Positions 1,265 through 62,945 of a stretch of 64,000 nt of DNA are shown here, piece by piece. The stretch is from an uncultured virus (IMG/VR IMGVR_UViG_3300025832_000005) (Duplodnaviria > Heunggongvirae > Uroviricota > Caudoviricetes), in the IMG/VR virus record IMGVR_UViG_3300025832_000005, positions 62,001 through 126,000 of that record. One strand, 5' to 3'. The notes under the pieces were generated by a model. The model was not told where the DNA came from, searched no databases, and saw only the letters and a program-made list of their open reading frames with translations. The position numbers and the translations under genes were made by a program. Positions within the stretch are counted from its first letter, which is position 1. The number at the start of each line of letters is the position of its first letter.

Positions 1265-3271
1265 TTACTCATCCTCTTTATATGGTTTAGGTGGAGCCAA
1301 CTTTCCATCATAATCATCAGGCCATATGACAGTTCTTGCGTTACGTTCACTAGGGCTTAATTTACTTGTTGGTCTTGTATCAGTATACGGGTCATATAGC
1401 GGTTTGTCAACCTTTTTATTATCTGGCTTAGGTTTAACAACTTTTGCCATAGGAGTCTTTACTGTGTTGTTAGTAACTTCTTGTAATTCTGGTAGTATGC
1501 TTTCCTGCTTTTCTTCCACTATTGGTTCAACTACAGGCTTAGGCTTTTTTACTGGTGGCGGATCTCTTGGCGGCAATCCTCGATCTGCTCTACGCCATTC
1601 AAATATATACTGTGCTGCAATTAGTAGTGCAACTGCTAATGGATCAAACACAAATATAATAATGAGTATTACCCAACGTACTGCATCTTCTAGTGTAGTG
1701 CGATCAGCATCCTCGTATATAAACTCTGCCAAATACTTAACAGGTCCTACTTCTGCTTCTAGCTTTCTAGCTTCTGCTTGTAGCGCAAACTTTTCATTTG
1801 TAATACGGTCAATATTATCGTTTGCTGTTTTAATTCTAGCTAACTGTGCGTCAGTTAATGTATCTAAATCTACATCATCGCCTATCTGAATTTCAGCACG
1901 TAATCTTTCAATAACACTTTGTGACTGTAAAATCTCTGCTTCTGCTAGTTCACGTAGTCTAGCCATTTCTGCTTGCGCATTTTCAATTTTACGATCTGGT
2001 GAGTTACGTAAATCAGTAATACTATCCTGTGCTAGTTTACGTTGCTCTCTAACAGCAGGTATGTCTGTATCAAGTACTATAGTAATTTTTGTTTGTATGT
2101 TATCACGTTGTGTTTGTAAACTACTTGACGCATCATTTCTAATACGATCAATTGTATCTAATAGTCCTTGCTTACGTGCTTGTACACTTTCTGTTTGTGA
2201 TCCTCGTAGCCCTGTAACTAAGCCAGTTAAACGTTCACGCTCTGAACTAATAACTAATTGTGCTTGTGATCTTAGTTCTGTCTCTTGTGATTGTAATTGT
2301 GCGATGCGTTCTTGCTGTGCTGTTACCCAAGCATTTAGCGCACGAGTTGTATTACTGCCAAATAGTCCGTCACTAGTAACACCAATTACTGCCTGACCTT
2401 CTTGTATTTTAGCACGTTCTGTACTTTGTAGTTTGTTTGTGGTAATAACAATTGATTCCTCAATTGCTGTAATTTGTGCTTTTAGTGTATCAACTGCACT
2501 ATAGTCTGGTACTAGTTCACTAATACGAGCTTCATAATCTGCCGCTTGGGTGTCTAGTCTAGTAATATCATTATCAAGTTGTGTAATTTGATCTCTATAA
2601 GGCTGTATTTGTTCCTCTACACTTGCTACACTTGTATTGGATAACTGTGTTCTAAGCTCTGATATTAATCCATTTAATCTTACTATTTCTGTATCTAAGC
2701 TAGCTATTTCATCTGAAAATACAGCAACTCTTCCATCAAGTGCTAGTTCAGCGGCACTAATAATATCAAGTTGCTCTTGTATGCTAGGTTGACGTCTTGT
2801 ATATGCGCCATCAATACGTTGTTGTTCTTTATCTATTTTTTCTTGTATACCAACATCTTCTTTGTCAGCATCAGCTTCTCCTTTGGCAATACGTTCATTA
2901 GCTCTAGTAATAATCTCTTGTTCTCTGCCAATCTCCGCATCAAATCTTTCCAGTGTTGCCACTTGTTCATTAGCGGCGGCAGTTTGTTCAATATGTGCTT
3001 TAGATAAGAATCCAAAGATACCCATGCTTGTAATAAACATCAGTACTAGTACTGCTATACTAAGATATACTCTCAACCACCAGGCTGCTCGATCCCAATA
3101 TTTGTGTAACCATACAGCCGCCACTAGTTTGCCAATTTCTAGTGCGCCGCCCATTATAATAATAGGAATACTTGCTGCTGCAAATATAGCAACTAGCCCT
3201 GCTACACTATAGTAAATCGCAACTCCACTGATAGTTAGTGCGACTAATAAAGTTAAAATACCAAATAACAT
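1265..3271 (-). CDS. Membrane-anchored long coiled-coil protein with a central peptidoglycan-binding-like motif
   Basis: Three N-terminal hydrophobic helices, about 430 aa of heptad-rich sequence, GVTSDGLFGSNTTRALNAW motif, C-terminal hydrophobic helix, Pro/Lys-rich tail. Confidence 0.7.
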   Translation of the reverse strand: MLFGILTLLVALTISGVAIYYSVAGLVAIFAAASIPIIIMGGALEIGKLVAAVWLHKYWDRAAWWLRVYLSIAVLVLMFITSMGIFGFLSKAHIEQTAAANEQVATLERFDAEIGREQEIITRANERIAKGEADADKEDVGIQEKIDKEQQRIDGAYTRRQPSIQEQLDIISAAELALDGRVAVFSDEIASLDTEIVRLNGLISELRTQLSNTSVASVEEQIQPYRDQITQLDNDITRLDTQAADYEARISELVPDYSAVDTLKAQITAIEESIVITTNKLQSTERAKIQEGQAVIGVTSDGLFGSNTTRALNAWVTAQQERIAQLQSQETELRSQAQLVISSERERLTGLVTGLRGSQTESVQARKQGLLDTIDRIRNDASSSLQTQRDNIQTKITIVLDTDIPAVREQRKLAQDSITDLRNSPDRKIENAQAEMARLRELAEAEILQSQSVIERLRAEIQIGDDVDLDTLTDAQLARIKTANDNIDRITNEKFALQAEARKLEAEVGPVKYLAEFIYEDADRTTLEDAVRWVILIIIFVFDPLAVALLIAAQYIFEWRRADRGLPPRDPPPVKKPKPVVEPIVEEKQESILPELQEVTNNTVKTPMAKVVKPKPDNKKVDKPLYDPYTDTRPTSKLSPSERNARTVIWPDDYDGKLAPPKPYKEDE

Positions 3272-36822: not shown

Positions 36823-37055
36823 TATTTTTTCCTGTTAACTGTCTTAAAAAAGCCTTCATGGCTTTGAAATGATGCTATCAGTTCTTCCCATTGTTGTGGT
36901 GATATTGCTATAGCATGTGGTATTTTTTTATCATCTTCAAATTGTCTAATATAGACAATGTCATCAAAACTATTAATAATAAGGTCAGAGTAATTACCGT
37001 GATCGTCCATGATTGTGATCGTAATCTCATCATGATCCATTTCTACGCTATACAT
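36822..37055 (-). CDS. Hypothetical protein
   Basis: 77-aa ORF. Confidence 0.6.
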   Translation of the reverse strand: MYSVEMDHDEITITIMDDHGNYSDLIINSFDDIVYIRQFEDDKKIPHAIAISPQQWEELIASFQSHEGFFKTVNRKK

Positions 37056-37103
37056 CTGACCTTATACTCCTGTCCACTGTGTTCTTATTTAAGGGATTCA
37101 GGT

Positions 37104-37307
37104 TCATTCAGAAAAGTGAGTGTTTAGCATTTCAATACGATCAGTTGCTGATGCCATTTTATCAAGTTCTTCTTGAATAGCTTCAACAATATCGCTGTGT
37201 TCACCAATACCAACTGCGTGGTTCATGTATACCAAGATGTTTGTTTTGGCACGTTCTAGTTCACCCTCGGCGTGCATACGTGCTGCTTTTACTAATTGTT
37301 CTTTCAT
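37104..37307 (-). CDS. Hypothetical protein
   Basis: N..VY....VGIGEHSDI motif; start reassigned to 37307. Confidence 0.65.
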   Translation of the reverse strand: MKEQLVKAARMHAEGELERAKTNILVYMNHAVGIGEHSDIVEAIQEELDKMASATDRIEMLNTHFSE

Positions 37308-37311
37308 TTTA

Positions 37312-37629
37312 TTATCCTTCTGAATCCTTAGTTGATAGACAACCAAGTACAATAGTAACAACTGATCCAATAAATGGAATCAATGTTGCGGCGGTCCACC
37401 ATGGATTTAATCCACAATTACGGCATCGTTTAGCTGTTACTGCTAGCATAACCCACAGTAAGGAAATCAGTGCCACCATACTAATTAAAAGTACCATTGC
37501 GCTACCACTTTCAACAAACGGAGTTACTATAATTACCGCAAGAAACGTAATTACTATTGTACCCCAATATTGACTTCTAGGTGCGGAACCATTAAAACTA
37601 AAGTTTCTTTTAAAATCTTCTGTTAACAT
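37312..37629 (-). CDS. DUF805-like membrane protein
   Basis: FSFNG.A.RSQYW..AV.AKR....G..W...IPFIG. Confidence 0.75.
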   Translation of the reverse strand: MLTEDFKRNFSFNGSAPRSQYWGTIVITFLAVIIVTPFVESGSAMVLLISMVALISLLWVMLAVTAKRCRNCGLNPWWTAATLIPFIGSVVTIVLGCLSTKDSEG

Positions 37630-37648
37630 ATTTTTTCTTTCTATTATT

Positions 37649-37723
37649 TGGCTGGGTCGATAGGACTCGAACCTATACTCTACGCTACCAAAAAGCGGTG
37701 CATTACCATTATGCTACGACCCA
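37649..37723 (-). tRNA. tRNA-Gln(TTG)
   Basis: Cloverleaf, anticodon loop TT-TTG-GT, GTTCGA T-loop, encoded CCA. Confidence 0.9.
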
Positions 37724-37728
37724 TTACT

Positions 37729-37803
37729 TGGCAGTCCCTAGGGGAATTGAACCCCTCTTTCCAGGTTGAAAACCTGGCGTCCTAACCGATAGACGAAGGG
37801 ACC
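37729..37803 (-). tRNA. tRNA-Glu(TTC)
   Basis: CCAGG-TTTTCAA-CCTGG anticodon arm, encoded CCA. Confidence 0.92.
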
Positions 37804-37807
37804 ATTA

Positions 37808-37892
37808 TGGTGCGGATGGAGAGACTCGAACTCTCACGCCGTGAAGCACAGGTACCTAAAACCTGCGTGTCTACCGATTCCACCACATCCGC
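37808..37892 (-). tRNA. tRNA-Leu(TAG)
   Basis: CAGGT-TTTAGGT-ACCTG, long variable arm, CCA. Confidence 0.92.
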
Positions 37893-37895
37893 TTA

Positions 37896-37936
37896 TGGTG
37901 CCTGTTGAGAGACTTGAACTCCCGACCGGCTTATTA
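37896..37936 (-). pseudogene. Orphan 3' half of a tRNA (Thr-like)
   Basis: TAATAAGCCGGTCGGGAGTTCAAGTCTCTCAACAGGCACCA: T-arm, acceptor strand and CCA, with no 5' half attached. Confidence 0.75.
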
Positions 37937-38011
37937 TGGTGCTGATGGAGAGAATCGAACTCCCAATCTACTGATTACAAATCAGTTGCCTTACCATTGG
38001 GCCACATCAGC
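37937..38011 (-). tRNA. tRNA-Thr(TGT)
   Basis: ACTGA-TTTGTAA-TCAGT anticodon arm, CCA. Confidence 0.92.
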
Positions 38012-38518
38012 TTAGAAACTTTGTCCTTCATAATAGCGTTTCATTCTACTATGTCGTCCGTTTCCTTTATTCTTACCCTTGTATGTTAATGTCTGACTAT
38101 GACAGTTAGGACATAACAAACTTAGGTTATCTTCAGCGTTATTTTCTGAATTGCCATCTTTGTGTTCTAATTCTAACACAATTGGCTTTTGGTTCCACTC
38201 AGTAATTCCGCATTGCCAGCAACCACTTACTTGTTCTGCCAAGTACCGTTTAACTGGTCCTTTGCTTAGTTTACCTGTTTCCTTCCAAACACGAACGTAT
38301 TCGTTATGTTGGAAACTATGTTGGCACTCTAAATTACAAAATTTATTCTTAGTCGAGTGTGACCATTTATTTTCATTTCCACAGTGCAGACATATAAATG
38401 TTTTTATAGGTCCTGCTCTGCTAACGCTATATCTACTTCCTTCTTTATGTGCTACCATATGTGCGTTCAACGCTCTTTGGGTAGCATATTCTTTATTACA
38501 TTCACCGCACTTAAACAT
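38012..38518 (-). CDS. HNH homing-type endonuclease with N-terminal zinc fingers
   Basis: CGEC..H...H, CLHC..FC..C, CWQCG..LELEHKDG..NN..NL.LLCPNCH; stop codon abuts tRNA-Thr. Confidence 0.88.
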   Translation of the reverse strand: MFKCGECNKEYATQRALNAHMVAHKEGSRYSVSRAGPIKTFICLHCGNENKWSHSTKNKFCNLECQHSFQHNEYVRVWKETGKLSKGPVKRYLAEQVSGCWQCGITEWNQKPIVLELEHKDGNSENNAEDNLSLLCPNCHSQTLTYKGKNKGNGRHSRMKRYYEGQSF

Positions 38519-38586
38519 CAGTGGCTCCTTATTTGCTCAAAAGTATTTATGCTTTTAAGCAAAATTTGCTCTATTAGTTGAGCAAG

Positions 38587-38608
38587 CTACCAACTGAGCT
38601 ATTGCGGC
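38587..38608 (-). pseudogene. Orphan 5' tRNA fragment (Thr-like, through the D-loop)
   Basis: GCCGCAATAGCTCAGTTGGTAG followed by unrelated sequence. Confidence 0.7.
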
Positions 38609-38609
38609 G

Positions 38610-38684
38610 TTATCTTTTTACTCTACAAATTGGACAAAAGTCGTTGTGATCCAATTCAAATTTACATTCAGGACATTTATTCAT
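38610..38684 (-). CDS. 24-aa zinc-ribbon peptide
   Basis: MNKCPECKFELDHNDFCPICRVKR; ATAAGTA box 5 nt upstream. Confidence 0.5.
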   Translation of the reverse strand: MNKCPECKFELDHNDFCPICRVKR

Positions 38685-38705
38685 ATTAATACTTATCCTG
38701 TATCT

Positions 38706-38796
38706 TGGCGGGCAGCCAGGGATTCGAACCCTGGGAACGCTATTAACGTTCGTCCGCTTAGTAGGCGGGTGCTTTAAACCACTCAGCCAACTGCCC
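38706..38796 (-). tRNA. tRNA-Ser with anticodon ACT
   Basis: CCGC-CTACTAA-GCGG anticodon arm, long variable arm, G73, CCA. Confidence 0.85.
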
Positions 38797-39187
38797 GTAA
38801 ACCGTCCCAACCTCCAAGTATTGCATGTTCTTCTGCATGACAGTTTGCACATAACAATGCGCACTTATCTACTTCTTCTAAAAAGACCTGTAAGTTTTTA
38901 GATCTTCTAAACGCTTTTGGGTCCTTCTTAGTCGGGTCTTTGTGATGAAACTGTAATGCTCCTGTGTAGTTGTTATATCCACACTTTTCGCAACAGCCAC
39001 CTTTATGTTTAATCGCTTGCAACCTAACATCTTTTTGTGTTTGGTGCGTTAATTTAATGTGACAACTTTTACACCGGATCTTCTGACCACCATAAAAGTT
39101 GTCTGGATTAGTTTCGTTACAAGTCTTACACAAGTATGGCTTTACCACACCTTTCTTACCTGAACTGCCTATGCCTTCTAAGTTCAT
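38783..39187 (-). CDS. HNH endonuclease
   Basis: CKTC..CKSC, GGCCEKCGY..ALQFHH.DP..K..E.DKC.LLCANCHAEEH; ORF ends inside tRNA-Ser. Confidence 0.88.
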   Translation of the reverse strand: MNLEGIGSSGKKGVVKPYLCKTCNETNPDNFYGGQKIRCKSCHIKLTHQTQKDVRLQAIKHKGGCCEKCGYNNYTGALQFHHKDPTKKDPKAFRRSKNLQVFLEEVDKCALLCANCHAEEHAILGGWDGLRAVG

Positions 39188-39230
39188 CTTACTCTCCTAT
39201 ACTGTTATTTAGCATATTAAAGTAAATTTA

Positions 39231-39255
39231 CTTTAAGCCACTCAGCCACCTGTCC
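39231..39255 (-). pseudogene. Orphan 5' fragment of tRNA-Ser
   Basis: GGACAGGTGGCTGAGTGGCTTAAAG, similar to the 5' end of the intact tRNA-Ser (GGGCAGTTGGCTGAGTGGTTTAAAG). Confidence 0.8.
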
Positions 39256-39261
39256 GTATTC

Positions 39262-39337
39262 TGGCTCCCTCTGCTGGGCTCGAACCAGCGACAAATTGAT
39301 TAACAGTCAATTGCTCTACCAACTGAGCTAAGAGGGA
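39262..39337 (-). tRNA. tRNA-Asn(GTT)
   Basis: ATTGA-CTGTTAA-TCAAT, G73, CCA. Confidence 0.93.
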
Positions 39338-39340
39338 ATA

Positions 39341-39448
39341 AAGACTGCTTATTGCTAACACACCTATCAACACTTCCTCCCTCACCTAGCCTTATTGACA
39401 TTGCTAGTTACGTTTGGTTGCTACTTGTGTGTAGCAATAAGCAGTCTT
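39341..39448 (-). ncRNA. Candidate structured RNA within the tRNA operon
   Basis: 17-bp perfect closing stem aagactgcttattgcta/tagcaataagcagtctt with an internal hairpin. Confidence 0.55.
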
Positions 39449-39457
39449 CCTTATTCT

Positions 39458-39525
39458 TGGTGCCCTCTCCCGGACTCGAACCGGGACGCTGTGAAGACTG
39501 AGGATCCCCATTCTCCATCACTAGG
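39458..39525 (-). pseudogene. Chimeric tRNA lacking an anticodon arm: 5' part like the CAT tRNA, 3' part of a tRNA-Leu
   Basis: CCTAGTGATGGAGAATGGGGATCCTCAG joined to TCTTCACAGCGTCCCGGTTCGAGTCCGGGAGAGGGCACCA; the two acceptor strands do not pair. Confidence 0.75.
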
Positions 39526-39534
39526 GTTATTCTT

Positions 39535-39628
39535 TGGTGCGGGCGGTGGGACTTGAACCCACAACGTGATCATTAATCTGTGAAGGATTTTAAGTCCTTT
39601 GCGTTTCAACCAATTTCGCCACGCCCGC
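39535..39628 (-). tRNA. tRNA-Leu(TAA)
   Basis: AAGGA-CTTAAAA-TCCTT, long variable arm, CCA. Confidence 0.92.
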
Positions 39629-39760
39629 TTATTAACTTTTTAACTCTGGAATAGTTGCCCCCTTTTGGAGCAAGTCCAACTTCTAACAACGTTTGTCTTA
39701 TATTACTATGATTATCGTATGCTGTCAATAACTCATTGTCAGAAACTTTAACTTAAACAA

Positions 39761-39784
39761 TGTCTACCATTCCACCAAGAGGGC
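39761..39784 (-). pseudogene. Orphan 5' fragment of tRNA-Leu
   Basis: GCCCTCTTGGTGGAATGGTAGACA; GCCCTCT pairs 7/7 with AGAGGGC of the 3' half ending at 39458. Confidence 0.8.
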
Positions 39785-39799
39785 ACTTTATTCTAATTA

Positions 39800-39990
39800 C
39801 TGTGTATGTGTGGGAGGTTCTCAACGCTTTCGCTCCGCCTATCCACACTAACGACAAACACTTGCCGGCATACTTGCATCGAGCCTTTTGTTGTGATTGC
39901 GACATCACTTCTCATCATATGGGACTTGCTAACCCATACTAGCTGAGGAGCAACCTCAACACGTCTCTTGGTACTCCTAAGGAGTACTAT
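39800..39990 (-). ncRNA. Candidate multi-hairpin ncRNA
   Basis: GC-richer gap with at least four hairpins (gtactcc/ggagtac, tgagg/cctca, tatggg/cccata, gtgat/atcac); no convincing ORF. Confidence 0.4.
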
Positions 39991-40075
39991 TGGTCCTAGC
40001 GGTTGGAATCGAACCAACTCGGTCATTACAACAAAGCGTTATGAGCGCTGAGGCTCCCCATTTGCCATCACTAGG
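39991..40075 (-). tRNA. Atypical tRNA with anticodon CAT and a long variable region
   Basis: 7-bp acceptor CCTAGTG/CGCTAGG, AGCG-CTCATAA-CGCT, about 16-nt variable region, GTTGG-TTCGATT-CCAAC, A73-CCA; position 8 is A. Confidence 0.7.
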
Positions 40076-40082
40076 TGTATTC

Positions 40083-40159
40083 TGGCGGTCCCTGCAGGAT
40101 TCGAACCTGCAACCTACTGCTTAGAAGGCAGTTGATCTATCCAGTTGATCTAAGGAACC
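40083..40159 (-). tRNA. tRNA-Arg(TCT)
   Basis: ACTGC-CTTCTAA-GCAGT, CCA. Confidence 0.92.
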
Positions 40160-40406
40160 TTAATTCTATTGTTTTTAGTTTTAACATGATAGCATTAACT
40201 GAGTCTGGTGTCAAGCCTGGAATAACATCATCATTGTCATTTATGCCAGGTAGTTGTACAAACATATTGTCGTCAAAAACTGCCGCTTCATACTTTGCTT
40301 TTCCAGGCAAAAGTACTACACTAAGCTGATACTTTCCAAACTGCTGTTTAGCTTGAAAGTGACCAGGACCAACTTCATTAAACTTGAGTGTATTGAAAAG
40401 TTGCAT
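40137..40406 (-). CDS. Hypothetical early protein
   Basis: SD GGAGG before ATG 40406; reads into the 5' end of tRNA-Arg. Confidence 0.6.
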   Translation of the reverse strand: MQLFNTLKFNEVGPGHFQAKQQFGKYQLSVVLLPGKAKYEAAVFDDNMFVQLPGINDNDDVIPGLTPDSVNAIMLKLKTIELRFLRSTG

Positions 40407-40410
40407 CAGT

Positions 40411-40818
40411 TTACACCTCCAATGTATATGGTTTATTCCACTTACCAACATTAACGTCAGTGTAGTGTGAACGACTAAAGTAATCAGTCATTGCGTCATC
40501 GTTGTTAAAGTACTTTGGACCTTTCATAGCATCTACAAGCTCTTCTAAAAAGTCACTAGCGGCACCGTATGTTTCAGGATAGTAAGGGTTTACTTGAATG
40601 TATCCATCATTTTCATAGTATGGTGTACCACGGCGTTCTGCGATCTCCTGGTTCTTTTTATTGGCTTCACCAATAAAGTCAATTGGACCACTCTTAATGT
40701 TTACACAAATTGTTGAGTGATTATTAACACTAATGCTGGCTTTCATACGATACTTTTTTAGTACTGCTTTGATGCCTGGTGCTAATTCTTTTTTCATTGC
40801 TTGTGATACATACGCCAT
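40411..40818 (-). CDS. Hypothetical early phage protein
   Basis: MAYVSQ..K..D.MTDYF..HY..VNVGKWNKPY; SD AGGAG. Confidence 0.75.
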   Translation of the reverse strand: MAYVSQAMKKELAPGIKAVLKKYRMKASISVNNHSTICVNIKSGPIDFIGEANKKNQEIAERRGTPYYENDGYIQVNPYYPETYGAASDFLEELVDAMKGPKYFNNDDAMTDYFSRSHYTDVNVGKWNKPYTLEV

Positions 40819-40851
40819 TTGCTAACTCCTGTTTGCTTAACTTATACATAA

Positions 40852-40880
40852 TGTCTAGCAGTTCTAGACCAAGATGTCAA
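40852..40880 (-). promoter_or_regulatory. Early promoter with a non-canonical -10 box
   Basis: TTGACA-tcttggtctagaactgc (17 nt)-TAGACA. Confidence 0.7.
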
Positions 40881-40888
40881 TAGCTAAT

Positions 40889-41263
40889 TTAACTTTTTTT
40901 ATATTTTTTTAACATTTTTTCTTGTTCAGCATATGCTTCAATTTCCCACGGACGTTCAAAGTAAGGAATATCACTAGGCTCAAACATAGGAAACTCACCA
41001 CGTACATCTTGTTTAATGTGTACAAACTCATGGAAGATAGCAGTAATAAGGTCTTCAGTTTTCAGACCTTTGCGAACACGGATCTCATACTCACGATCAT
41101 CATCGCCTTCTAAACAGTCTGCTTCGGCGGCCAATCCTGGCGCAATCTCTACATCAACTGCTAGTTTACGGTGTCGTGGTAACCAGTAATCTTTAGCAAA
41201 CCATAATGCTTCTGTTACTAGTTGTCGTTCTTTTTTAGTACCGCCGATTACACTATAAAGCAT
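40889..41263 (-). CDS. Zincin-like metallopeptidase
   Basis: HEFVH (HExxH) and PWEIEAY. Confidence 0.75.
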   Translation of the reverse strand: MLYSVIGGTKKERQLVTEALWFAKDYWLPRHRKLAVDVEIAPGLAAEADCLEGDDDREYEIRVRKGLKTEDLITAIFHEFVHIKQDVRGEFPMFEPSDIPYFERPWEIEAYAEQEKMLKKYKKS

Positions 41264-43357: not shown

Positions 43358-44374
43358 TTATGCTCTTGAGCGGATTGCCGCTAAGATGTCCTGCGCACTT
43401 GGCTTGTCACCTTCAGCTGCTACTGGAGCAGGTGTTGGTGCAGGCGTTGGTGCCGCTTCTGCTACTGGAGCAGGTGTTGGCGTAGGTGCTGTTGCTACTG
43501 GTTGTGGCGTTGGCGTTGCTACTGGAGCAGGTGCCGCTGCTGGCGCACTACCATTATTTGGTGCGCTGTTTGATGTATCAATTTGTACACCTGATGGGCG
43601 ATAAAAATTACCCCAACGTGATGGATCATACATTTTACCATCAACACTTGCTTCAAACATTTCAGCAATTACTGCCAACTCTGCTTCGCTTGGTTGCTTT
43701 GGTAGATAATCATTTAGATTATACAATCCATGTGTTTCGATAGCTGCACGTTCATTGCTATCTAAGCTACGTTCTCTACGAGCCCAACCACTAGTTGAGT
43801 AATCTGCGTATTGACCTTTTGTTGTCTTAGTAAGACGGAAGTCTGTACCACCTTCGTAATCTGTAGGAAGTTCTTCAAAGTCACTACTCATTAGAGCACC
43901 TTTAATAATATTGAAGATACTTGGATTAATTACAAATCTACGAATTGGATTTTCTGGAGACTCTTCTTCCAAAGAGTTTTCAGTTACAAAACCTTGGAAT
44001 ACGTATGAACGTTTCTTCCAATACTTACGACCCATGTCTTCTAGACTTGGATCCTTAAACCACTGACGTACCTCTGATAGTACTGGACAGCTTCCAACTG
44101 GTCCCCACATTTCATTACATGGAACGTTTACAACACAACGACGACTGTCTGGTTGTCCTTCGATTCCTTGAAACTCCATGCGAATCATTTGACGCTCACG
44201 CCAAAAGAAAGTGTTTCCTGTATCTCCATCTGGAAGGAAACGAATTACACTTGTTGAATTTTCTGGGATGTTCCAAAACGGATAGATTGCGTTATCGCCT
44301 CCGCCGCTTTGCTTGCCTGGACCGCTGTTGTCCTGTGCTTGTAGTTTTGCTTTAATTTCTGCCAATGATGCCAT
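43358..44374 (-). CDS. Single-stranded DNA-binding protein (gp32-like)
   Basis: IRFLP, CPV, RKYWKKRSY, P..Y..G.DF.L.K....ADYS.S; Pro/Ala linker. Confidence 0.85.
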   Translation of the reverse strand: MASLAEIKAKLQAQDNSGPGKQSGGGDNAIYPFWNIPENSTSVIRFLPDGDTGNTFFWRERQMIRMEFQGIEGQPDSRRCVVNVPCNEMWGPVGSCPVLSEVRQWFKDPSLEDMGRKYWKKRSYVFQGFVTENSLEEESPENPIRRFVINPSIFNIIKGALMSSDFEELPTDYEGGTDFRLTKTTKGQYADYSTSGWARRERSLDSNERAAIETHGLYNLNDYLPKQPSEAELAVIAEMFEASVDGKMYDPSRWGNFYRPSGVQIDTSNSAPNNGSAPAAAPAPVATPTPQPVATAPTPTPAPVAEAAPTPAPTPAPVAAEGDKPSAQDILAAIRSRA

Positions 44375-61196: not shown

Positions 61197-62945
61197 ATGG
61201 AATTGTTCCAAGTAACACTAAAGCATGGCGAAGACATTAATGCTTTCTATGAGGATATGGAAACACCAGGTGGTGCTCTAACTATTCCAGATCGTAAAGT
61301 AGAGTGTGCCGCAAGACGCCCAACTTCAAGAACCACAGGCTATATGCTTACTATGGAAGAAGCAATGGAAGTAGCTGATGACGACAGAGTTGAACAAGTT
61401 ATACCACAAAGTGTTTTAGATAGAAACATAGATAAACCAGCAAGTACTTTCACAGGCAGGTTTGACAAAGGTGTTCCAAGCGGTTCAGCGCCGTTTACAA
61501 AAGCAAATGGTCAAACAGGAATGAAGTATACTGTTGATCACAAAAATTGGGGCATACTAAGACACAGTGAAGGCGCAAACAGAACCAATTGGGGATCAAA
61601 TGCTTCATTATCAGATAGATATGTTGATGACAGTGTAACATATTCAGCAAGTGGTAAAAATGTAGACATTGTTATTGTTGAAATAAAAACATTAAGCGAC
61701 CACGCAGACTATTCAAGTAGAGTAGTGGACTACAACTGGGGTCAACACTACAACACAATCACAGGTGGTACTAACTATACATACAGCAACGCAGACGCTC
61801 GTGACAACTATGGCGCAGAAGACAAACATCCCACAGCAGTCACAAGTTATGCGGCAGGCACACTATACGGACTTGCCAATGATGCAAACATATACATGTT
61901 TGACAAGACTTACGAAAAATCAAAGTCAGGCGGCAGTAGTGATGATAGAACTTATGCCTACATCAGAGAGTTTCACGCAAACAAAAGTATAAATCCAGCA
62001 ACAGGTAGAAAAAATCCTACTATTGTTAATATTAGTTTGGGAACACAGACCCTAGTAGGCGGCGGGGCCGCTTTAATTCACTTCCAGGGTGTAACTACAG
62101 ACAACGGCACAGGCAATGATCTATTAGCCGCAGAACTAAATGCAAGAGGTATATATGCAAGTGATCCTGAGTGGACAGACAATCAACAATTTAGTGTAAA
62201 TTCGCAAGTCCTACTAAGTGATATGCAAGATGCTATAACAGATGGAATTATTATTGTAGCATCGGCAGGCAACGAAAACAGATACACTGATGTGTCAGAT
62301 GGCGACAACTACGATAACTATATTGTTAGTGAGGGGGCATATTTCTTTAAAGATTACTACTTTGGCGGTAATTATCCATTTAGATATTACTATCATCGTG
62401 GCTCCACTTATACGTTCAATGGTGCTATTTGTGTAGGTGCGTTAGGAGTTAACACAAATCAAGGCAAAGCAGGTTTCAGCAGTTGGGGACCAGGTGTCGA
62501 TGTATATGCCGCAGGAGTTGGTTGTTTTGGCGCAGGAGAAAGTAGCAATATTATGTTTGGTGTTCCGTATCCAGGACAAGAAGCAAATACATCAAACTGG
62601 GACACAGTACAGTCTGGATCAGGAACAAGTTATAGTGCGCCGTTCGTAACAGGTATGTTAGCTTGTTTAGCAGAAATATATCCTAACCTTACACACGCAC
62701 AAGCAAGAACATATTTACACGACAATGCTGTAACAGGATTAATGGTAGACACAGCAGACGCAATAGATGTAGACACAGACACAAGAACAAGCATAGACGG
62801 TAGCAGCATTGATAGAATAGCATTGTGGAAGAATCACAGAGCCACATCAGGCAATATGGCGTTCAACACATATAACAAAGATGTTAACAATAAGCCTACA
62901 ACTGGTGCTATCTATCCTCGTACAAGAATACGCAAGCGTGGGTAA
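61197..62945 (+). CDS. Subtilisin-like S8 peptidase
   Basis: SGKNVDIVIV, HPTAVTSYAAG, IVNISLG, SAGNE, FSSWGPGVDVYAAG, SGTSYSAPFVTG. Confidence 0.85.
   Translation: MELFQVTLKHGEDINAFYEDMETPGGALTIPDRKVECAARRPTSRTTGYMLTMEEAMEVADDDRVEQVIPQSVLDRNIDKPASTFTGRFDKGVPSGSAPFTKANGQTGMKYTVDHKNWGILRHSEGANRTNWGSNASLSDRYVDDSVTYSASGKNVDIVIVEIKTLSDHADYSSRVVDYNWGQHYNTITGGTNYTYSNADARDNYGAEDKHPTAVTSYAAGTLYGLANDANIYMFDKTYEKSKSGGSSDDRTYAYIREFHANKSINPATGRKNPTIVNISLGTQTLVGGGAALIHFQGVTTDNGTGNDLLAAELNARGIYASDPEWTDNQQFSVNSQVLLSDMQDAITDGIIIVASAGNENRYTDVSDGDNYDNYIVSEGAYFFKDYYFGGNYPFRYYYHRGSTYTFNGAICVGALGVNTNQGKAGFSSWGPGVDVYAAGVGCFGAGESSNIMFGVPYPGQEANTSNWDTVQSGSGTSYSAPFVTGMLACLAEIYPNLTHAQARTYLHDNAVTGLMVDTADAIDVDTDTRTSIDGSSIDRIALWKNHRATSGNMAFNTYNKDVNNKPTTGAIYPRTRIRKRG

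Follow-up and report, generated by a model that had tools for sequence, protein, structure and literature searches.

Broken tRNA genes in an uncultured Caudoviricetes virus as probable insertion scars of HNH endonuclease cassettes that carry a replacement tRNA

Three transfer RNA (tRNA) genes are broken in a 64,000-nucleotide stretch of an uncultured virus of the Caudoviricetes (positions 62,001 to 126,000 of IMG/VR record IMGVR_UViG_3300025832_000005; the whole stretch is hereafter called the window). They belong to a minus-strand cluster of nine tRNA genes that runs from 40159 to 37649. Downstream of each of these resident genes, which are those for Leu(TAA), Ser(ACT) and Thr(TGT), come an HNH endonuclease gene or its remnant and an intact tRNA gene with the same anticodon, an arrangement already noticed in the initial annotation of the window and confirmed here. 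The pieces are probably (with a rough probability of 0.8) the insertion scars of free-standing HNH homing endonuclease cassettes that carry a replacement tRNA and split the resident gene at or near its anticodon arm. In each cassette, a short leader precedes an HNH gene, and the complete tRNA gene that comes last begins at the end of the HNH reading frame or within it. The 133-kilobase (kb) IMG/VR virus contig of which the window is a part (estimated completeness 37%) contains a single intact gene for each of Leu(TAA), Ser(ACT) and Thr(TGT), and all three are the carried copies.

The tRNA pieces all lie where they had initially been placed, on the minus strand, which was read and compared with relatives. 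These relatives are 80 loci fetched around homologues of a 135-amino acid (aa) open reading frame (ORF) adjoining the cluster, and L-numbers name fetched loci. All nine cluster tRNAs pass the Rfam tRNA model, with 35.7-71.5 bits compared to a gathering score of 29. In the direction of transcription, the features of the three split genes are the following (Pfam HNH cut-off, 21.4 bits):

39761..39784, minus strand: 5' piece of the resident tRNA-Leu(TAA), acceptor strand and D-arm, 24 of 24 bases identical to L004 5032-5055, where an intact Leu(TAA) begins
39629..39760, minus strand: cassette leader and HNH remnant (last ~42 codons), delimited by comparison with L279; the ORF is intact in L194
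39700..39728, minus strand: promoter-like site inside the HNH remnant (TTGACA, 17 bases, TAATAT; 10 of 12), ~70 bases upstream of the carried tRNA-Leu
39535..39628, minus strand: carried intact tRNA-Leu(TAA), 61.7 bits
39498..39525, minus strand: 28-base 5' piece of a tRNA with anticodon CAT, 25 of 28 bases identical to window 40075-40048 and 96% identical to L194 3079-3105
39458..39490, minus strand: 3' piece of the resident tRNA-Leu(TAA), end of the variable arm, T-arm, acceptor strand and CCA, 33 of 33 bases identical to L004 5085-5117
39231..39255, minus strand: 5' piece of the resident tRNA-Ser(ACT), 23 of 25 bases identical to the intact Ser(ACT) of L018
38783..39187, minus strand: HNH gene 1 (134 aa), phrog_2255 at E 1e-24, Pfam HNH 15.8 bits, under the cut-off
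38706..38796, minus strand: carried intact tRNA-Ser(ACT), 49.0 bits
38587..38608, minus strand: 5' piece of the resident tRNA-Thr(TGT), 19 of 22 bases identical to Thr(TGT) of L018
38012..38518, minus strand: HNH gene 2 (168 aa, C2H2 finger and HNH), phrog_14736 at E 1.7e-22, Pfam HNH 15.4 bits, under the cut-off
37937..38011, minus strand: carried intact tRNA-Thr(TGT), 71.5 bits
37896..37930, minus strand: 3' piece of the resident tRNA-Thr(TGT), variable loop, T-arm, acceptor strand and CCA, directly upstream of Leu(TAG)

The Leu gene is the clearest of the three. Its 5' and 3' pieces match each other, as had been claimed, the acceptor halves GCCCTCT and AGAGGGC pairing at 7 of 7 positions, and the 3' piece can be extended to 39502 with 39 of 45 bases identical to L004. 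Directly before it, the 28-base piece of the CAT tRNA is fused to the Leu 3' piece to form a chimeric pseudo-tRNA (39525-39458). For the split gene initially described as Thr-like, both pieces are present, but the acceptor halves GCCGCAA and AACAGGC are unpaired (3 of 7). Within its 3' piece, 21 bases (37927-37907) match Thr(TGT) of L036 at 95%, and the piece aligns to the 3' end of the L018 and L019 Thr genes at the syntenic site. One detail of the initial description has to be corrected: the two 3' pieces do not start at or just after the anticodon, but past the anticodon arm, in the variable region, and comparison with relatives indicates that the resident Leu and Thr genes lack their anticodon arm. 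A control scan gave 202 intervals with tRNA-like partial matches in the real sequence compared to 9 in the reversed sequence, so the tRNA pieces are not chance resemblances.

The carried Leu(TAA), Ser(ACT) and Thr(TGT) tRNAs have model scores similar to those of resident alleles, and the anticodons of the broken and the carried gene agree in four of the four cases for which an intact allele is known (Leu, Ser and Thr of the window, and a Leu(TAG) gene of L010). The HNH genes and the carried tRNA genes are in immediate contact: the last 14 bases of HNH gene 1 overlap the carried tRNA-Ser, the stop codon of HNH gene 2 abuts the carried tRNA-Thr, and the frame of the HNH remnant extends 23 bases into the carried tRNA-Leu.

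The insert in the Leu gene was found to be the decayed copy of a unit that occurs elsewhere with a complete nuclease gene. An intact 203-aa HNH gene precedes the same Leu(TAA) tRNA in L194 and L195, which were found by an exact 38-base search with the carried tRNA, and in L278 and L279, found by a shorter search of metagenome contigs; the short ORF of the window is its C-terminus. The window is devoid of 510 bases that lie, in L279, between two copies of the 8-base repeat AAGTTAAA (at L279 654 and 1164), and has this repeat once, at 39754, from where window 39754-39522 and L279 1164-1396 are identical at 226 of 233 positions. A promoter had been proposed in this insert. The promoter-like site is present and may drive the carried tRNA, but the stretch that contains it is a truncated HNH gene, and the number of such sites in the region is not above that of shuffled sequences.

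The HNH and Leu(TAA) cassette is 92-97% identical across loci whose flanks are otherwise unrelated, which bears out the initial proposal of mobile cassettes. Apart from the cassette (225 bases, 91.6%), L194 and the window have only a few tRNA-like stretches in common, and L279 and the window only one tRNA in addition to the cassette (229 bases, 97.8%); a tblastx comparison of L194 with the 64-kb window gave no match beyond the cassette and the HNH domain. The resident alleles that received this single unit have different acceptor stems, starting with GCCCTCT in the window, GCTCGCA in L194 and GCGGGCG in L279. Both in the window and in L194, the 3' piece bears the matching acceptor partner of its own 5' piece, the window pair corresponding to the intact allele of L004 and the L194 pair to the intact allele of L019 and L006. 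Since dead halves would not be expected to co-vary, this indicates either that the unit entered different intact genes on separate occasions, or that it homed with conversion tracts ending in the conserved D- and T-arms. The sequence near the junctions is common to the window, L194 and L279, and in the Leu halves it is decayed or deleted, while the outer acceptor parts are locus-specific; this combination would fit homing with short conversion tracts.

L194 also contains a chimeric pseudo-tRNA of its own (2240-2313, minus strand), made of the first 13 bases of a long-armed TAT tRNA and a Leu(TAA)-like 3' half that are joined at the anticodon loop, at a shared AGACTT. The adjoining 195-aa ORF (L194 2402-2989, minus strand) resembles a GIY-YIG nuclease by eye, with no Pfam hit at E 0.001.

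If the pieces are insertion scars, uninterrupted alleles should exist in relatives, and they were found at the same positions in L004, L010, L018 and L019. L004 has the plain order Arg-Met-Leu(TAA), and its intact Leu gene is identical to both window pieces. In L010, a sister phage whose flanking protein is 95% identical, Asn is directly followed by an intact Ser gene with no HNH gene between them. In L018 and L019, an intact Thr(TGT) gene lies directly upstream of Leu(TAG), in L018 after a small zinc-ribbon ORF. The nuclease genes differ even between the two sisters: L010 is devoid of HNH gene 1 and of the Leu(TAA) cassette, and has two HNH genes that the window lacks, a difference of four nuclease genes within 3 kb. 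HNH gene 2 is common to both, its counterpart in L010 encoding a 96% identical protein.

The junctions themselves are well supported. L002 and L003 are 99.9-100% identical to the window over 2.3-2.5 kb and have the same arrangement (three IMG/VR contigs in all), and every junction is spanned with 0 differences by contigs of four runs from four studies, one of which may be the source sample (X4 records 19-21; X9 records 30 and 32; X14 records 10 and 12-14; X12 records 4, 6 and 7). Mis-assembly, which had been named initially as an outcome that would overturn the proposal, is not seen in these independent assemblies. Other contig joints with short sides (19-31 bases) were set aside, as they probably derive from tRNA genes of other organisms.

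The same architecture was found in other loci, with other anticodons:

L010, Leu(TAG): split by a 208-aa HNH gene and an intact Leu(TAG); pieces 22 of 22 and 42 of 42 bases identical to the intact gene of L019
L217, Leu(TAG): cassette 79.5% identical to that of L010 over 825 bases, in another allele whose halves pair 7 of 7
L210, Leu(TAA): both halves reach the anticodon loop and pair only if G-U pairs are counted (read by eye; none by exact reverse-complement search)
L114, L122 and L136, Lys(TTT): an HNH ORF and an intact Lys(TTT) overlap, and a 5' piece (18-20 of 22) precedes the ORF by 63 bases

In the best-preserved copies (L210 and L194), the halves extend into the anticodon loop. Among the 26 distinct tRNA clusters of relatives, HNH ORFs were detected by motif in three (the window, L002 and L010), and clear internal tRNA fragments are present only there. 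The Leu tRNAs carried by L210 (790-866, TAA) and L217 (1794-1870, TAG) are only 77 nucleotides (nt) long, without the long variable arm that is usual for tRNA-Leu.

The nucleases concerned form a family linked to tRNA genes. In an alignment of eleven proteins, that of HNH gene 2 among them (alignment A1), 21 columns are invariant, with the HNH core LELEH.DGN ... LCPNCHS, and HNH gene 2 retains all 21. HNH gene 1, which belongs to another PHROG family, is not among the proteins of this alignment. The enzymes of L194 and L279 exceed the Pfam HNH cut-off (26.7 and 26.5 bits, respectively, vs 21.4). As a single query, the L194 protein matched only its own two contigs, and A1 was needed for the family search, which indicated that the family is encoded on at least 596 viral and at least 583 bacterial stretches, the best 80 of each being fetched. 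Among solved structures, the A1 profile has no credible relative (best E 0.041, cytochromes).

In 75 of the 139 distinct viral contexts a tRNA gene starts between -40 and +150 bases of the end of the nuclease ORF, with an overlap in 33 cases and a gap of 0-5 bases in 14. The linkage extends to particular isoacceptors: for 14 of the 22 distinct close homologues of HNH gene 2, a Thr(TGT) gene is no more than 75 bases away, on one side or the other, while Thr(TGT) makes up 18 of the 128 tRNAs there. A tRNA gene is also present in 71 of the 80 bacterial loci, and where one is located directly downstream (-40 to +60 bases; 29 loci), it is a Leu gene in 19 and a Gln gene in 8. Over 114 residues (82-195), the L279 enzyme has 46% identity with proteins that bear the annotation 'H-N-H endonuclease F-TflIV' in T4-like coliphages, and in phage ACG-C40 one HNH gene with this annotation lies 6 bases upstream of tRNA-Leu(TAA), with no 5' piece seen by eye upstream of it.

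How could such cassettes spread? The HNH nuclease would cut the intact tRNA gene with the same anticodon in a co-infecting relative, and the break would be repaired by recombination off the cassette-bearing genome, a UvsX-like recombinase encoded by the phage itself (42175-43293) being available. The D-arm and the T-arm would serve as homology, and the recipient would retain its own acceptor-stem ends while the inner part of its gene would be lost or disrupted. The interrupted gene would no longer present an intact site, and the carried tRNA, which may be resistant to cleavage, would assume its function. After fixation, the nuclease gene would decay and the carried tRNA would be kept as the sole copy. 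The Leu cassette of the window, and an HNH gene that follows the CAT tRNA in L010 and is missing in the window, fit the later nuclease decay expected in this scheme. The only hint at the cut site is the position of the missing segment, the anticodon arm. The endonuclease-driven tRNA swapping that had been proposed from the initial annotation is supported in every part open to sequence comparison.

Several observations nevertheless weigh against it. The nuclease activity, the cut site and the discrimination between alleles are predicted. At the centre of its anticodon loop, the carried Leu(TAA) does not differ from residents, whereas its D-arm is clearly different, so that any resistance of the carried copy must sit elsewhere than in this loop, for example in the D-arm. 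The unpaired Thr halves are a further difficulty, as is the fact that the Thr 5' piece fits no intact acceptor stem in the collection, and for Ser and Lys there is a 5' piece only. Of the Thr-linked HNH gene 2 homologues, about half follow the tRNA gene instead of preceding it. Pieces are also infrequent across the family: they occur in 5 of 44 rows of HNH relatives, two of which are the window's own lineage, and a same-isotype match of at least 18 of 22 bases was found in 11 of the 75 tRNA-linked viral contexts, 8 of these being judged fragments by eye. In bacterial loci with a downstream tRNA, a 5' piece was found in 0 of 29 (best match 16 of 22), one possible 3' piece (20 of 25) being found in the bacterial locus L323. 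Finally, HNH genes were detected in the 26 relative clusters by motif, with no profile, and weak internal matches of 18-23 bases occur in L022, L057, L061, L065, L078 and L079.

Which other explanations could account for the nested genes? The one that survives best, although we regard it as improbable, is that HNH enzymes cut tRNA genes in general, as does SegB of phage T4, and that the nesting is a by-product of ectopic recombination, the shared anticodon resulting from the homology of isoacceptors, with no dedicated target and no selection for rescue. SegB recognizes a T-arm motif and cuts many tRNA genes (PMC2330249), and chimeras of two different tRNAs are present in the window, at 39525-39458, and in L194, where the joint is at the shared AGACTT; the clusters of sister phages also differ by several gains and losses. 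Such an indiscriminate process is, however, at odds with the occurrence of one cassette type in three resident alleles that have the same anticodon, with HNH sub-lineages that follow isoacceptors (Thr(TGT) in 14 of 22; Leu, Gln or Lys elsewhere), and with an agreement of broken and carried anticodons in four of four cases, in clusters of about nine different tRNAs.

It is very unlikely that the pieces were retained as useful RNAs or signals, whether as decoys against host defences that target tRNAs, as processing sites, or as regulators of the nuclease genes. They do sit within the transcribed tRNA operon, RNA-library contigs span the whole cluster (though this is no proof of transcription), and in several loci the spacing between the 5' piece and the HNH start that follows it is fixed (45-68 bases). 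But the Thr 5' piece of L010 is scrambled after its first 10 bases while the following ~50 bases are nearly identical, the junction-near sequence of the Leu halves is decayed or deleted, the extent of the pieces varies by locus, and many cassettes have none. For a link to anticodon-nuclease defence, which the initial annotation had brought in, no support was found.

Another insertion mechanism is hardly credible, be it a group I intron that has degenerated within the anticodon loop or an integrase insertion that duplicated its attachment site. The best-preserved copies are indeed inserted at the anticodon loop, which is the site of bacterial tRNA group I introns, and tRNA genes are frequent targets of integrative elements, which often leave partial duplicates behind. 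Yet intron families gave no match in window 37000-41000 even at E values up to 10, and none at gathering score in 8 related loci; apart from the HNH genes, a 24-aa zinc-ribbon ORF was the only one found in the cluster, and no recombinase ORF was seen; and the flanking pieces belong to a different allele, instead of repeating the carried tRNA. An artefact of assembly or a chance resemblance, which conserved tRNA arms might suggest as they can mislead short-read assemblers, can practically be dismissed in view of stretches of 24, 33, 22 and 42 bases that match intact alleles exactly, the three IMG/VR contigs with the same arrangement, and the junction-bridging contigs without differences.

Insertion of HNH cassettes with a replacement tRNA remains the preferred explanation, and it opens a broader perspective that we advance tentatively, at somewhat below even odds. 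The cassettes may be natural 'home-and-rescue' drives, in which HNH lineages of phages and bacteria would each be specialized on one isoacceptor, insert at the anticodon loop, and be harmless without splicing by means of the replacement tRNA. Processing of the tRNA 5' end would then remove the stop codon of the nuclease gene and lower its expression, and phage tRNA sets would be reshuffled mainly in this way, perhaps spreading unusual tRNA variants between unrelated phages.

The public runs that contain the stretch are marine or estuarine metagenomes. Among GenBank phages, megablast with the cluster gave no close relative (2 records, 3-4% covered), and in distant blastn comparisons with the cluster tRNA genes were the only matches. 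The order of the cluster, in the direction of transcription, is Arg(TCT), a long-armed CAT tRNA, Leu(TAA), Asn(GTT), Ser(ACT), Thr(TGT), Leu(TAG), Glu and Gln. A tenth ARAGORN call at 43416-43506 was rejected as a tRNA, being a repetitive coding stretch. Elsewhere in the window, a full-length homologue of IF-3 is encoded at 270-803 on the minus strand (Pfam IF3_N at E 1.8e-24 and IF3_C at E 4.1e-28).

The second gene of the cluster is unusual by itself:

39991..40075, minus strand: long-armed CAT tRNA ('Met*'), intact, 85 nt, 35.7 bits

Its position is occupied by an ordinary 77-nt tRNA-Met in L004, L006, L017 and L018. The combination of a long variable arm with anticodon CAT or TAT recurs in L010 (8652-8742) and L194 (2314-2407), with scores of 35.7-58.4 bits for the three genes, and ARAGORN names these tRNAs Met or Ile. 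The gene is followed by a 206-base non-coding spacer (window 39785-39990, minus strand) that is 91% conserved in L010 and present in no other fetched locus, with no Rfam match and a fold z-score of -1.97. The spacer opens with a short palindrome ending in ACCA and may hold the last 9 bases of a displaced tRNA-Met. The palindrome itself (~39988-39968) was considered as a collapsed tRNA-Met and dropped, as the first half corresponds, in L010, to the last part of an HNH ORF; a 9-base 3' remnant is possible.

The carried tRNA-Ser (window 38706-38796) has the anticodon ACT, with an A at the wobble position, which is unusual for Ser and yet conserved: it is also found in the relatives L002, L007-L010, L018, L022 and L053, in the unrelated viral contigs L084 and L088-L090, and in L194, a few relatives (L019, L028) having GCT instead. 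Near the Thr site, the 24-aa ORF (window 38610-38684, minus strand) has two CxxC pairs, as in a mini zinc ribbon, and is kept directly upstream of this site in L010 and L018. A terminator-like hairpin with a T-rich run (window 38566-38585, minus strand) lies between the Thr 5' piece and HNH gene 2 and is conserved in L010.

Homing endonuclease genes are known to persist inside self-splicing introns and inteins, or beside their target. If the interpretation proposed here is right, a third way of survival would be to break the target gene and to bring along its replacement. This would explain the tRNA pseudogenes and odd pieces in phage tRNA clusters, as well as the fast turnover of their tRNA sets, and it predicts a family of nucleases with long recognition sites specific to tRNA genes. 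As related enzymes adjoin tRNA-Leu in cultured T4-like coliphages, the idea is open to ordinary phage crosses. The window genes would belong with free-standing homing endonucleases: they are ORFs of a homing family, present or absent at one site among relatives, and no intron family was matched around them. No description of a tRNA gene split by a nuclease gene with a replacement of the same anticodon was found in the literature searched, subscription journals being outside the search. The arrangement appears to be a new variant of free-standing homing endonuclease behaviour, and it is well documented, with three cases within 2 kb, empty sites, and one cassette in three resident alleles.

The closest known system is T4 SegB, a GIY-YIG enzyme which recognizes a T-arm motif and promotes the inheritance of the T4 tRNA region (PMC2330249), and can also amplify a tRNA gene (PMC13096335). 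HNH genes adjoining tRNA arrays have been noted in bacteria and phages as well (PMC8421152). In both SegB and the window, a nuclease gene is located in a phage tRNA cluster, is present or absent among close relatives, and is part of an association of nuclease and tRNA genes seen across many phages; SegB cuts the tRNA genes of relatives that do not have it, and drives its own inheritance and that of neighbouring tRNAs. The enzymes of the window, on the other hand, are HNH only according to Pfam and PHROG, with no GIY-YIG domain. SegB, as described, lies between tRNA genes and recognizes a T-arm motif common to many tRNAs, whereas here the resident gene is split and a replacement with the same anticodon is nested inside it. 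F-TflIV-like HNH endonucleases are of the same family by sequence (46% identity, with a link to T5), HNH gene 1 belonging to a different PHROG family.

Other elements are comparable in their position or in their logic. A group I intron in a tRNA gene is likewise an anticodon-loop insertion that spreads into the uninterrupted allele, but there the function is kept by splicing, whereas here no ribozyme was detected, part of the resident gene is missing, and a second, complete gene supplies the function. In contrast with an integrase-borne island in a tRNA gene, the window cluster was found to have no recombinase ORF, and its pieces are of another allele than the intact tRNA. The ribonucleotide reductase gene of phage Aeh1 is reportedly split by mobE and still functional, in work attributed to Friedrich et al. 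in 2007; it is likewise a case of a free-standing nuclease gene inside a useful gene whose function is kept, except that the protein halves reassemble there, while here the halves are dead and a replacement is provided. Finally, engineered 'home-and-rescue' or 'cleave-and-rescue' drives, which are synthetic, based on Cas9 and built in animals, destroy the resident copy of a gene and carry a functional one. The logic is the same, and the system of the window would be its natural and protein-guided counterpart in phages.

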